NCBI GenBank assembly: GCA_951406725.2
Contig: OX597824.1
Coordinates: 35,278,001-35,342,000, forward strand
Origin: Octopus vulgaris
Taxonomy: Eukaryota
DNA length: 64,000 nucleotides
Direction of reading: 5' to 3'
Within the stretch, counting starts at the first letter, position 1. Each line of letters opens with the position of its first letter. The notes below the pieces were generated by a model. That model was not told where the DNA came from and did not search any database. It saw only the letters and a program-made list of their open reading frames with translations. Of the stretch, positions 9,300 through 57,818 are shown piece by piece. The translations under genes were made by a program, and so were the position numbers.

Positions 9300-9672
9300 T
9301 GACTGTGGCCATGCTGGAGCACCACCTTTAGTCGAGCAAATCGACCCCAGGACTTATTCTTTGTAAGGCTAGTACTTATTCTATCGGTCTCTTTTGCCGA
9401 ACCGCTAAGTTACGGGGACGTAAACACACCAGTATCGGTTGTCAAGCGATGTTGGGAGGACAAACACAGACACACAAACACAAACACATACATATATTTA
9501 CATATATACGACGGGCTTCTTTCAGTTTCCGTCTACCAAATCCACTCACAAGGCTTTGGTCGGCCCGAGGCTATAGTAGAAGACACTTGCCCAAAGTATC
9601 ACGTAGTGGGACTGAACTCTGAACCATGTGGTCGGTAAACAAGCTACTTACCACACAACCACTCCTACGCCT
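9300..9672 (-). mobile_element. SINE family B, near full length
   Basis: tRNA-like head gtggttgtgtggtaag...gagttcagtccc, CORE-like ttgggcaagtgtcttc, internal microsatellite. Confidence 0.92.
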
Positions 9673-10173
9673 GAATTATGTACCTTATGAAAAATTACAT
9701 CCTATGTCTTGATATAATTATATATATCTTTGCAATAAATATTTTATGGAAATATGTGAGTGGATCTTCTTAGTTAATACCGCGGCATTGTTGTCGTTTT
9801 GGAGGGGCTTGATGGCTGCATGCATGTAAGTGCAATCAGTTGGGTTTCCATGTATATAGTTACGATTATACCTCTTATATTATTTATTTATTTATTTATT
9901 TATTTATGTTTTTGGCTGTGTTTGTGGCTATGTATGTGTATGAGTGTATGTGTGTGTGTATACATATAATTATGTATGTATGTGCGATGGATCTGTGGAT
10001 GTGCGTGTGCGTACGTGCGTTTCTTGACTAACTAACCGTAAAATTTCCTTTGTGATTCAAATTTAAAACTATAAGCCAATCGAATCAATCTAGAATAATC
10101 AATATCAAGCGGACAGAGGAATTAGACTTATTGATATGTAGATGTCCGCTTGATGTACTTGGTACAGTCATGG

Positions 10174-10225
<52 letters not shown>

Positions 10226-10226
<1 letters not shown>

Positions 10227-10829
10227 ATTAATTTTTATTGACTTTTTGTAGGGTTATAATTTTATGAACTGAACTGTGTGTTTTTTTTTTTATTTTTTTT
10301 TTATGTATATATGTCTGATTTAAATTTAAATGTGAGTGTGCATATATTTTCCTTGATGTTAGTTATGGAACTAGGAGTCCAATATGTAAAATAACTGTAT
10401 TTGTTAATGTATATTGAAATATTTTGTTTATTTTGTATTATCGTATTAATGTGTATATATATATGTGTAGTATTATGAGTGTCTATGCACACATTTTTAT
10501 ATTTTATATTTTTATATTTATATGTAAAATTTTTTTTCACACTTATATTAAATTAAATTCTCTGAAGAGGCCGTGGGACATCCTTGTTAATGTCTCATTT
10601 ATACCTGCCTTATATGGCTTATAGGTTAAATGAGGCATACTTGTCCTCACGGCCGAAACAGCTGTCAGATATGATGTAATTGTATTTTATATTTCTATTT
10701 CCTTGTCTAATTATATTTACAATATATTTTGTATAATGTCTTTGCTGTTATGTAATGGTGTAATAAAGTATTGATTGGGTATTATCTGATGGTTGATTGA
10801 TTTAAGTATGTTTCTCCATTTTCTAATTT

Positions 10830-10831
<2 letters not shown>
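10226..10831 (+). mobile_element. Penelope-like non-coding fragment carrying a long-stem-II hammerhead
   Basis: T/G-skewed body between (TTA)n and (TA)n; hammerhead ~160 nt upstream of the 3' end. Confidence 0.6.
10559..10669 (+). ncRNA. Type I hammerhead ribozyme with 86-nt stem II; predicted cleavage after GUC (10666)
   Basis: tct-CTGAAGA-ggccgtgggaca...tgtcctcacggcc-GAA-ACAGCTGT-C-aga; all core nucleotides canonical. Confidence 0.88.
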
Positions 10832-10869
<38 letters not shown>

Positions 10870-10874
<5 letters not shown>

Positions 10875-11090
10875 CTTTACTACCCACAGGGGGCTAAACA
10901 CAGAGGGGACAAACAAGGAAAGACAAACGGATTAAGTCGATTACATCGACTCCAGTGCGTAAATAGTACTAAATTTATCGATGAAAGGCAAAGTCGACCT
11001 CGGCGGAATATGAACTCGGAACGTAACGGCAGACGAAATACAGCTACGCATTTCGCCCGGCGTGCTAACGTTTCTGCCAGCTCGCCGCCT
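10870..11090 (-). mobile_element. SINE family A (young type)
   Basis: Matches family A consensus with a small internal deletion. Confidence 0.92.
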
Positions 11091-28813: not shown

Positions 28814-29231
28814 AAGGCGGCGAACTGGCAGAAACGTTAACACACCGGGCAAAATGCTTAGCGGTATTTCGTCTGCCGCTACGTTCCGAGTTCATATTCC
28901 GCCGAGGTCGACTTTGCCTTTCGTCCTTTCGGGGTCGATAAATTAAGTACCAGTTGCGTACTGGGGTCGATATAATCGACTTAATCCGTTTGTTTGTCCT
29001 TGTTTGTCTTCTCTGTGTTTAGCGCCTTGTGGGTAGTAAAAGAAATAGGTATTTCGTATGTCGCTACGTTCTGAGTTCAAATTCCGCCGAGGTCGACTTT
29101 GCCTTTCATCCTTTCGGGGTCGATAAATTAAGTACCAGTTACGCACTGGGGTCGATATAATCGGCTTAATCCGTTTGTCTATGCTTGTTTGTTCCCTCTA
29201 TGTTTAGTCCCTTGTGGGCAATAAAGAAATA
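28814..29231 (+). mobile_element. SINE family A dimer inside one 16-bp TSD
   Basis: agaaatgttccataat at 28798-28813 and 29232-29247; second unit starts at internal ggtatttcgt (29049). Confidence 0.95.
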
Positions 29232-53765: not shown

Positions 53766-56059
53766 TTTAGTTTAGAGTACCATATATATATTTTTAGTTA
53801 TATGTGACCATATATATATTTTTAGTTATATAGTTTAGGCTTTAATTATAGTTGGTATTTAATTGGTATTTCTTTGTTTTGTATTTACTTAATATTTTAT
53901 TGAGTGTGGGAATGAATATTAGTGTATATATCGAGTTTGTACGTATGTATATGTATGTGTGAGTGTGTATATGGTTATGTTTGTGGGTGTGTGTATATAT
54001 GTGTGTGTATTTGTGTGTATTGTGTATGAAAGGGGTTTTATCTTTATCTTTATATTTGTATGTATGGACTTCATTATCATGATTAGTTTAATAAGTATTT
54101 TGTATGTAGGTATGGGTGTGAATGTATGTATGCGTGTGTACAAGTGTAAGTATAGATGCGGTAGTGTATGAGTGCTATGTAATTGAGTGTGATTAATTAT
54201 GCACTTGTATACATGCAAGTTTTGAATGTCTGTGTGATTGCACCCGTCTGCGTGTACACACTCATTTTTTTATATATATATTAATATCTATATGAGTTTT
54301 CGTTTTTTATGGTTTTTTTAAAGAATTTGTAGAAAGGTTTGTATATTCCATTCATAATTTTTTAATTTACGTTTGTTTACTACGCTCAAAGAATTTTATA
54401 TTCCATTCATAATTTTAATGACGCTGTTTTTACGTAGCGCAAATTATTTTTATATGTTCGGTTCCATGGTAACGTAATTTTTGTTTATTGTAATAACGGA
54501 TAGTGTTAAAATTCACTTCAAAATTTGATACTGATTAGAAGGTATGTCTATTTTTCTCCTTTTGTTAATCTTGTTACTTATGATAATCTGATTACTTATG
54601 GAGTATTTTATATATCGTATTATGTGTAGAAATGTTGTTTTTCTTTTGTATGTTTATGTATGTGTGAATGTGTGTGTGTGTGCGTATTTGCTTGTATCGA
54701 GTTTTGTACGTATGTATTTGTATGTGTGAGTGTGTATATGGTTATGTTTGTGGGTGTGTGTATTTGTGTGTATTGTGTAAGGGGTTGTATCTTTATATTT
54801 ATACATGTATGTATGGATTTTATTTATCATGATTATTTTAATGAGAATTTTTGTATGTAGGTATGGGTGTGTATGTATGTGTGCGAGTGTACAAGTGTAA
54901 GTGTAGATTTGGGAGTGTATGAGTGCTTTGTAATTGGGTGTGATTATTTATGCACTTGTATACATGTAAGTTTTGAATGTGCGTGTGATTGCACCCGTCT
55001 GCGTGTACACACTATTTTATATATATATTAATATATATATGAGTTTTCGTTTATCATGGTCGTTTTATTAAAGTTTGTTTCTATCGAGATTTGTACGTAT
55101 ATATATGTATGTGTGAGTGTGTATATGGTTATGTTTGTGGGTGTGTGTATATATGGGTGCGTATTTGTGTGTATTGTGTTAGGGGTTGTATAGTTATATT
55201 TATACTTGTATGTATGGATTTCATTTCCATTCATAATTTTTTAAAAAACGTTTGATATCCATGAGCAAAGAATTGTTCGGTTTTCTTTTGAGTGTTTATG
55301 TATGTGTGAATGTGTGTGTGTGTGTGTGCGATTGTTTGCGTAATTTATTTATCTGTATGGGTGTGGGTGTTTATATATTGGTATATATCGTGTTCTGTAT
55401 GTATGTGTATGTATATGTATGTGTGAGCGGGTATATGTATATTGTTTATGAATGAGTGTTGTATGTGTGTGTGAGGAAGTATGAATAAGTAATGTGTTGA
55501 GTGTATGAGCATGTGTGTGTATATATAGTTTATTTTTTGTTTTTTGTTTTTTGTTTTTTGGTTGTTTGTTTTTTGGTTTTTGTTTTTTGTTTTTTGCTTG
55601 TTGTTTTTTGGTTTTTGTACATTTTAAAATATGAGAACTTTTATAATAGGTTTTTATATTCAATTGTTTATAGGGTTTATTTTAGATTATTTTAGATTAT
55701 ATATTGATTATATATAGATTATATATAGATTATATATAGATTATATATAGATTATATATTTTTATTTTCATTGATAATTTTATTATTTTATTATTTTAAA
55801 TTATATTAAATTATATTTTAAAATATTGATATTTTTAGATCGAAAATCCACCTGAAGATTGTCGGTAGCAGACATGAAACAATTGTTGTGGCGGTTTATT
55901 TAATTTATATTAAAATTTTATGTATTGATTAAGTCTTTTCTTGTTTGGTTTTAAAATAGTGGTTTTGTCTCGAATTATATTATATAATATTTTACTATAA
56001 AATTGGATTTAACCCTAAATCTGATTTTTCCCTGTAAATTTGGATTCATTCCCTAATAT

Positions 56060-56223: not shown

Positions 56224-57380
56224 CAAATTTGCATACATGAGGCTGATAACATCATATGACTTGGAAGGCAGCTCCTTGAGCAACACTCTTTGTCTGATAA
56301 CTTAGAATACATGCCCAAAGAAGTTGCACGACTCTATCGCAACGTATCATCAGATGAAAGGATGAGCCTATATGAACAGAAGACTATGCATGGATATGTT
56401 AGTAGAAAGCTCCGTGATGATAGTAACATCGATCATCAAAGCAGTTTATCATGGACCAATAGCCGGATTACTACCTCCCACTTTGAAGGGTATGCGTTTG
56501 CAATCCAGGAACAGGAAATATCAACTAGGTACCTGATGCACAAAAGGGATAGAAATGCAGGGAAAGCAGTATAATGTGATAATCGATGCAGACTTTGTGA
56601 AGTTCCACGTCATAAGTTGTCCAAAAATGTCATCACGGTATTATCCACTGATGAGACATGATATTATAGCTAGGACACTCTATAATGAAATCCGTCGGAA
56701 GAATAATCCCGAAGATAAAAGAAATAAGAACCCACAATATGGTAGAAGCCATAGCCACTCATAATATAAAGGAATACTGGTGGACTGTCCCAGTGAAGAC
56801 CTCAATAAAATGTAAGCACAATAGACCTGATATAATGATTTGGGATAGAGTAGAGAAATTGCGAACAGTTGTGGAAATTAGCTGCCCTGCAGATGTTAAC
56901 ATAAAGCTGAAAATCAGTGAAAAAGAGAACACCTATGCTGAACTATTGAGAAATCTGCAGTTACTCTATCCAGATTGCAAGTTCAGGTTTATACCTGTAA
57001 TTATTGAGGCCCTGGGATATGTAACGCTCTTCTCAAAACCAGAAAGGAAAAAGCTAATTCGAAGACTACAGATCCAATCCATCCTTGGAATGTAAACATC
57101 TGTAAAACTTTCCAGAAGTTTATCATTTAAATATATATGAGCATGTCTAGATATGCAACTATATGCATGAGAATACATATATAAAACATACAAATCTGCC
57201 ATACATACATTCACATACATACACACACACACACATACAGACAGACAGACATACATACGTACATACATACAGACAAAAATACCCTGTTGTTGATGTTGAA
57301 ATTCCAATGAAGGAGCCTTGGATCTAGGTTAGAAACCGGTTCTTCCTCTAATGGCAAGAAATCTTGAAATAAACTGAATG
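56224..57380 (+). mobile_element. 5'-truncated R4/Dong-like non-LTR retrotransposon in (TACA)n
   Basis: Decayed C-terminal ORF plus ~250-bp 3' UTR; (TACA)n on both sides. Confidence 0.85.
56236..57130 (+). pseudogene. Disrupted C-terminus of LINE ORF: CCHC zinc knuckle and restriction-like endonuclease
   Basis: MHG...EGYAFAIQEQEISTR, CRLC..HVISCP, RHD, NRPDIMIWD, VVEISCP, EKENTY, IPVIIEALG motifs across stops and frameshifts. Confidence 0.88.
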
Positions 57381-57424: not shown

Positions 57425-57770
57425 ATGGCTGCCCCCTCGTTATCGAGTATGGCCATTGCACGAAGCTTAACTGTTACTGGTGCTGTGATCGAATGTAACT
57501 TTTTAGCCCAGCTAAAGATCTACAATGTCTTGTACAAAATTGGCAACTAAAACCTTTACTGGTAATAGCCGGCTGTAGTTGTAACTGGGCTTCATGTACC
57601 TTTGCATGTCGTTTAAGTCCTCCTGCCGAATTACACTCTCTTCCACATGCCCGACAGATATGATTAGTATGGTGTGTTACACCACCACTAGTGGCCAGGT
57701 TGTCACTCATCTGTCTCGTTTTATGACTACGAAGATGACTCATGAGTCCAGCTTTACTGAGGCAGGGTCT
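57425..57770 (-). mobile_element. 3' end of an RTE-like LINE encoding tandem C2H2 zinc fingers
   Basis: CLSKAGLMSHLRSH / CRACGRECNSAGGLKRHAKVH / CQFCTRHCRSLAGLKSYIRSQH, stop, ~50-nt tail, then (TGTA)n; second copy of the tail at 438. Confidence 0.75.
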
Positions 57771-57818
57771 GCAGGGTCTTGCAGGGTCTTGCAAGGTCTT
57801 GTAAGGTCTTACAGGGTC

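Follow-up and report, generated by a model that had tools for sequence, protein, structure and literature searches.

The 64-kb window of Octopus vulgaris DNA analysed here (the whole stretch of 64,000 nt) carries a type I hammerhead motif whose stem II is an 86-nt, largely paired arm. That the motif is the hammerhead of a Penelope-like element (PLE) is close to certain, and overall we favour, with some reserve, a reading in which it belongs to the 3'-end pLTR, has an arm whose pairing is selected, would need to dimerize in order to cut after C10666, and offers the arm as a likely handle for the RT-endonuclease. Both the ribozyme and the retrotransposon clade are known; the long-armed variant occurs commonly in the genome and lies beyond the reach of the standard searches tested.

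The hammerhead motif and its 86-nt stem II

Hammerhead positions follow the standard numbering, and cleavage sites obey the NUH rule. The window motif comprises:

10559–10669 (+): hammerhead motif, type I (sequence read and fold)
10559–10561 (+): stem I, 5' strand TCT (sequence and three-stem scan)
10562–10568 (+): catalytic box C3–A9, CTGAAGA (sequence read)
10569–10654 (+): stem II, 86 nt, from G10.1 (10569) to C11.1 (10654) (fold, covariation, conservation)
10569–10575/10648–10654 (+): helix IIa, 7 bp (fold)
10576–10580/10642–10646 (+): helix IIb, 5 bp (fold)
between IIb and IIc (+): 9 x 3 internal loop (fold)
10590–10601/10627–10638 (+): helix IIc, 12 bp (fold)
10603–10606/10623–10626 (+): helix IId, 4 bp (fold)
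10607–10609/10616–10618 (+): helix IIe, 3 bp (fold)
10655–10657 (+): G12-A13-A14 (GAA) (sequence read)
10658–10665 (+): self-complementary stem III ACAGCTGT (sequence and fold)
10666 (+): C17 of the GUC site, the predicted cut falling on its 3' side (sequence read)
10667–10669 (+): stem I, 3' strand AGA (sequence and three-stem scan)

The type I core is complete (C3 U4 G5 A6 N7 G8 A9, G12 A13 A14, A15.1–U16.1, H17), and no extra base lies between positions 9 and 10.1. A preliminary description of this DNA had reported the canonical core, the G10.1–C11.1 pair, the GUC site and the 86-nt stem II, together with a 3-bp stem I and a palindromic stem III, and the sequence confirmed each of these. 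The palindrome calls for one refinement: it is present, but as a monomer it forms just 2 bp with an AGCU loop. The motif thus has three helices with an open helix I, namely a strong stem II, a 3-bp stem I, and a stem III of 2 bp in the monomer or 8 bp in the dimer. All five stem II helices named beforehand recur in the MFE fold, where they total 31 bp (7 + 5 + 12 + 4 + 3), the longest uninterrupted one having 12 bp. The motif region folds with z = −5.31, a stability equalled by 0 of 200 shuffles, and base-pair probabilities give G10.1–C11.1 at least 0.996 in three sequence contexts. C3, U4, G5, A6, G8 and A9 are invariant in alignment A1, the rows of which were selected via this same box.

A strict three-stem scan of both strands returned this motif as its sole match in the window. 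The family pattern occurs at 199 genomic sites and its reversed control at none, so the motif is not a product of chance. Rfam gave no hammerhead match in the window at the gathering score, and none of its nine matches at E <= 10 was to a hammerhead family; the stem II insert is the likely cause of this miss. A second hammerhead-like motif lies at 55846–55895 (+), with a 17-nt stem II region, a CCAC/GTGG stem I and a near-palindromic ACAATTGT; it resembles matches in another locus (L043) and probably belongs to another PLE family.

The minimal PLE hammerheads (PMC4209133; Lunse et al. via PMC6765202) share with the window motif the type I topology, location in pLTRs, a weak palindromic helix III, the G10.1–C11.1 pair and predicted activity as a dimer. 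They differ in having a helix II of 7–8 bp at most and a loop of up to 10 nt. The preliminary description had called typical PLE stems II very short; 7–8 bp is somewhat above the canonical length, although still far shorter than the arm described here. Its expectation that length-limited searches would overlook the motif holds both for Rfam and for the descriptor of PMC4209133, which admits 3–7 bp in stem II and a 3–10-nt loop and cannot match this motif.

A truncated Hydra-clade element and its relatives

The hammerhead stands 167 nt before the 3' end of an element copy, the boundaries of which were set against 30 other genomic loci:

9672–10834 (+): 5'-truncated Hydra-clade Penelope-like retrotransposon copy, consisting of the 3' UTR/pLTR part without ORF (87–96% identity to other copies)
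10809–10833 (+): conserved element 3' terminus TGTTTCTCCATTTTCTAATTTTGTA, near-identical in related long-arm families
10832–10872 (no strand): (TA)n microsatellite target at the 3' junction (repeat annotation)

Other copies extend upstream of 9672, whereas the window copy does not. Many are 5'-shorter and some form inverted pairs, and nearly all share one 3' end, followed by (TA)n or a tail. A first look with a 161-nt probe raised 971 candidates in the 2.8-Gb genome, 40 of which were scored at 96–100% identity. A Hydra-type ORF found no match in the 64-kb window, so the window copy is a solo truncation, and most likely it does nothing.

Dispersed SINE-like repeats flank the element (9300–9671 and 10875–11090), the PLE copy starting right after one of them, and tandem examples of the 185-nt SINE-like unit are found at 28863 and 46426 of the window. 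Fragments at 56670–57092 (+) and 57477–57818 (−) are candidate remnants of other non-LTR retrotransposon ORFs, with an apparent likeness to those that carry a restriction-like endonuclease and zinc fingers. Identity as a non-LTR retrozyme was considered and rejected: what the window holds is one isolated copy of an autonomous element, with neither a tandem array nor a tandem repeat over the motif. Retrozymes (PMC7229834; bioRxiv 10.64898/2026.07.22.740005) likewise combine type I hammerheads, animal repeats, dimer cleavage and a PLE link, but they are tandem non-coding units of 150–400 nt, unlike this dispersed truncation.

The suggested link to Penelope elements was borne out elsewhere in the genome, where an RT and GIY-YIG ORF occurs in cis with the same hammerhead. 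At two loci (L037 and L044) this sequence is joined to ORFs for RT and GIY-YIG; in L037 the exact same hammerhead lies downstream of an RT + GIY-YIG ORF with a frameshift and a stop. A sister family, B (family labels A–H are defined in the present analysis), is young, its copies being 99% identical. At three loci (L075, L076 and L112) it has the order pLTR-ORF-pLTR, the ORF being bracketed by two hammerheads that lie on the same strand at a distance of 5.6 kb, and two copies keep open frames of 960 and 955 aa spanning RT and EN. Its hammerhead has a 2-bp stem I and, at pair 4, a C–U mismatch, which tells against the favoured reading. The anatomy is that of a PLE throughout: pLTR-ORF-pLTR tandems, inverted 5'-truncated copies and an optional tail.

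In most of the near-identical young family B copies the ORF is interrupted at either of two stretches of C, with recurrent broken frames of 472, 519, 534 and 444 aa, which may reflect assembly error or RT slippage. A programmed frameshift at a G GGA AAC heptamer was rejected as the source of this common break, since natural copies read through the heptamer in frame and the breaks fall at the C-runs.

The ORF was identified by motifs (GLYRDD, VVYQC..VYIGAT) and homology; Pfam gave no significant match for three ORF pieces. The closest named relatives of the element protein, among the best 120 of 638 matches, are two, both from Argonauta hians. Hydra marks in the protein are SDKT, RIRWR (a one-residue variant of RWK), CNCRNKNKC (the CxCX5C linker) and CSLC-INE..N..CIH (CxxC and CxH around E and N). 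The assignment to Hydra was made from these motifs and a by-eye comparison with the Hydra proteins in the PMC8557442 supplement.

The Hydra-clade PLEs described by Craig et al. (2021; PMC8557442), which include Hydra-1_Obim of Octopus bimaculoides, have in common with the present element the C-terminal GIY-YIG, DKT, RW[K/R], CxCX5C, CxxC..E..N..CxH and the (TA)n target, as well as a sense hammerhead near the 3' end with a self-complementary stem III of 3–4 bp; four listed Hydra families have the stem III acag..ctgt. In size they differ: published Hydra elements are generally below 3 kb, whereas here the unit is 5.6 kb with a 3' UTR of 2.4–2.8 kb and an ORF of about 950 aa. A size below 3 kb and a short hammerhead are typical rather than diagnostic of Hydra elements. 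The present family is not Hydra-1_Obim, from which both its hammerhead and its length differ. The long 3' UTR (L037:4790–7596, 2.8 kb; L076:2030–4480), together with an asparagine-rich, expanded RT-EN linker, brings the unit to 5.6 kb, roughly double the size published for Hydra elements.

Among 64 element ends, 38 run straight into TA repeats, 20 have a tail first and six are other. Eighteen of the 20 tails measure 169–180 nt, as against 30–40 bp in the available descriptions of PLE tails. Tails at L003, L004, L016, L028 and L045–L074 (3' ends) stop just past a perfect GGGTTGAA/TTCAACCC hairpin, which is a candidate second RT start. At several loci (L037:7880–9190, L075, L036, L042 and L109) different hammerhead-bearing families adjoin within the same TA tracts, and such neighbours could form heterodimers where their stem III palindromes match.

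Conservation and prevalence of the long arm

We regard it as very likely that the structure of the arm is under selection. Between the A1 element (L037) and family B (L076), stem II is 91% identical, compared with 83% for the ORF and 52% for the upstream UTR (70% ungapped); among 251 UTR windows taken outside the ribozyme, median identity is 56% and the maximum, at a TTA repeat, 89.5%. Over the last 100 nt identity is likewise high, at 88%, so recombination could explain part of the high A1–B identity.

The check for covariation in stem II that the preliminary description had proposed was run across copies and related families, and covariation was found. We hand-picked 26 arms of 85–100 nt from related families, aligned them by sequence alone and scored 24 pairs from the proximal and central parts of the window fold; seven distal pairs that are not alignable were set aside. 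Pairing is possible in 86.8% of cells, a level reached by 0 of 500 shuffles and compared with 36–46% in slid registers, and two-sided changes occur at 16 of the 24 pairs. Counted on a tree, the signal is weaker: two-sided events number six where the null averages 1.1 (1 of 2000 null runs), and the pair is kept in 43 of 86 changes against 39% under the null (reached by 21 of 2000 runs). RNAalifold on the sequence-only alignment returned 12 pairs, a proximal helix plus a mispaired core, and was set aside as support.

Within family A we used 60 copies, taken largely in listing order from 100 of the 199 pattern matches. The arm is 86 nt long in 59 of them, where the pattern allowed 70–96 nt. Pairing is kept by 10 of 10 variants present in at least four copies and by 2 of 14 variants present in one or two (Fisher p = 7e-5); the value becomes p = 0.008 after allowing for transitions and linked pairs (eight independent pairs): every lineage variant is a transition, and about half of transitions preserve pairing in any case. 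Five copies have an A–C mismatch at one lineage-variant pair. The distal third of the arm is unalignable between the 86-nt and the 97–100-nt families; the sequence of helix IIc is recognizable across families A–F, and a 5'-side internal loop after 10–12 bp recurs in families A, B, D, E and F. On these sequence comparisons, helices IIa–IIc are real and selected, with moderate statistical strength.

A proposal that the arm serves as a double-stranded substrate for ADAR or Dicer, in host or element regulation, strikes us as highly improbable. An 86-nt rod is similar in size to a pre-miRNA, and A-to-I editing is heavy in cephalopods. The longest uninterrupted helix, at 12 bp, speaks against both enzymes, and copy variation lends the ADAR version no support: in 59 copies, rare A>G changes number two over 21 A columns versus seven T>C over 29 T columns, and lineage variants (five A>G, four T>C) have no A>G excess, in a check that sees only edits reverse-transcribed into new copies.

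The long arm, which the preliminary description set against the typical PLE hammerhead, is not peculiar to the window copy but is the common form among the genome's hammerheads of this stem III class. We counted matches to CTGANGA-gap-GAAACASSTGT, with control runs alongside:

gap 8–30 nt: 2,692 sites (control 23)
gap 40–69 nt: 6,257 sites (control 11)
gap 70–100 nt, ACAGCTGT only: 3,166 sites (control 4)
gap 101–131 nt: 852 sites (control 28)

Arms of 40–131 nt thus account for 10,275 of 12,967 sites in this stem III class only, in a census that leaves out gaps of 31–39 nt, other stem III palindromes and minimal forms and in which a few sites are counted twice. Among 55 sampled long arms, with the window type excluded, 30 reach z <= −2, stem II is closed by at least three pairs in 42, and stem I has at least two pairs in 45; none of these 55 examples, from many families, has G at position 17. 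Arm length across families ranges from 21 to 124 nt. A Hydra-type ORF lies in cis in the 85–86-nt families and in a 55-nt family. It found no match at 22 large loci, many of them chosen for other families, so the link to the element there extends at most to the common 3' terminus. The 55-nt arm belongs to a second Hydra-type family (L032:7250–9241, −; L033:1095–2060, −), the endonuclease of which has no CxCX5C linker. In a GGGATAT family (contig C1), stem II forms a series of 21, 28–29 and 49–51 nt that looks like growth by internal duplication.

In all 26 Hydra rows of File S2 of PMC8557442, stem II has 3–7 bp and a loop of 3–10 nt, at most 24 nt as against 86 nt here; that study searched core spacers of 7–17 nt and remarked on eight half-core cases at 35–50 nt. 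The same file flags as deviating an enlarged stem II in PLE-X1_sMoe of a spike moss (9 bp plus a 35-nt loop, 53 nt). This is a single plant family from another clade, with a shorter arm, and the part of the source covered gives neither covariation nor genome-wide prevalence. Long peripheral helices around a canonical core are also found in ASBVd and in the Clec2 discontinuous hammerhead (PMC6155905, PMC6466107), so such helices are compatible with hammerheads. ASBVd further shares a short stem III and double-hammerhead cleavage, but there the rod of the viroid itself makes up helices I and II; Clec2 belongs to type III, its insert lying in helix I, and neither sits in a retrotransposon pLTR. 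In the literature covered, which leaves most subscription papers, Repbase and Dfam outside, we found no account of PLE hammerheads with a long stem II, nor any census for cephalopods.

The range of arm lengths also bears on whether the arm has a function of its own. Loop II might simply tolerate insertions in elements with bloated, AT-rich UTRs, selection doing no more than keeping the insert paired and the core undisturbed. The continuum of 21–124 nt, the similarly expanded 3' UTR and ORF linker, and the abundance of short-arm families in the same genome (the 2,692 sites above) fit this explanation. We nonetheless think it unlikely, because sequence conservation of the arm between A1 and B exceeds that of the ORF, helix IIc can be recognized from family A to F, and deletion would be easy, yet the full 86 nt is kept in nearly every family A copy.

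Predicted cleavage and possible roles of the arm

Nearest-neighbour energies, which omit tertiary contacts, place the active fold of the monomer 6.7–8.4 kcal/mol above the MFE, with a mispaired core and with stems I and III each forming at a probability below 0.06. An 8-bp stem III duplex between two copies is worth −11.1 kcal/mol, and the two-copy fold reaches −102.3 kcal/mol against −93.8 for two monomers. The monomer is thus predicted to be inactive and palindrome-mediated dimers to be favoured, and the dimer gain through the palindrome fits the PLE double-hammerhead model in the available part of PMC4209133. In a tandem transcript, two ACAGCUGU palindromes would pair into the 8-bp stem III of a double hammerhead; cleavage at both sites would release unit-length RNA, which may circularize and serve as template. 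We consider it probable that the family ribozyme can cleave, either as a dimer or with protein.

Every copy in the genome retains both sides of the cleavage site, so the template was either uncut or religated. One alternative supposes that no cleavage occurs in vivo and that core and arm are a folded element on uncut tandem RNA that binds protein or positions the RT. The retained flanks and the energetic cost of the active fold would suit this, as would the report, in the accessible part of PMC11167929, that unprocessed RNA is the main template of the Anolis PLE. Against it, many unrelated families keep the bases of the core and obey the NUH rule (the absence of G17 noted above), and stem III is palindromic in several sequence versions. 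We judge this alternative distinctly unlikely.

The proposed part of the arm as a handle is the weakest step of our reading. The stable arm would fold first and be bound by the element protein, which would aid the weak stems I and III, and once bound it would keep the RNA near RT start sites 167 and about 340 nt downstream. These positions are suggested by the 169–180-nt tails and by analogy with the Anolis PLE, in which the tail marks two RT start sites (PMC11167929, as far as available). In that system the hammerhead cleaves only with the element's protein. We put the arm forward as a protein handle tentatively, with a little less than even confidence. Its variation in sequence and length (21–124 nt, with 30 of 55 sampled arms at z <= −2) sits uneasily with a single specific site of binding.

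The arm might instead aid folding at the RNA level, with no protein: a stable stem II would fix one arm of the junction, and bulges or the 9 x 3 loop would replace the loop I–loop II contact or dock monomers. The near-complete pairing of G10.1–C11.1, while stems I and III are nearly absent, agrees with this, as do the 5'-side internal loop recurring in five families and the newt hammerheads of PMC6155905 (available part), which have an internally looped helix I and specific helix II loops. A distal stem I extension (10543–10550/10672–10679) showing consistent changes is possible, but its p of 0.13 against shuffles is not significant. In the flanks of 12 representatives, nothing conserved was found that could base-pair with the loops of stem II, in a search blind to non-canonical contacts. 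An RNA-level aid seems to us rather unlikely, and behind the protein handle.

A bolder extension would make long-arm type I hammerheads an unrecognized subtype that dominates the genome (about 10,000 sites in many families), with stem II as an RNA domain dedicated to binding by the Penelope RT-endonuclease and the ribozyme as a protein-gated switch that couples dimer cleavage or circularization to the choice of RT start; we regard this as doubtful.

Standard descriptors and Rfam undercount hammerheads in the present genome by thousands. Were the arm neutral, this would still be a useful, if modest, annotation correction; were the subtype reading true, censuses of animal ribozymes based on short-stem descriptors would have missed most hammerheads in such genomes. 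As for the role of PLE hammerheads, their cleavage as dimers is weak (PMC4209133); in Anolis, the only system so far reconstituted, cleavage needs the protein, insertion proceeds in vitro without need for cleavage, and no reads end at the site (PMC11167929). With its open ORFs and an arm that is large, separable and covarying, a young family provides a direct experimental handle on that role.
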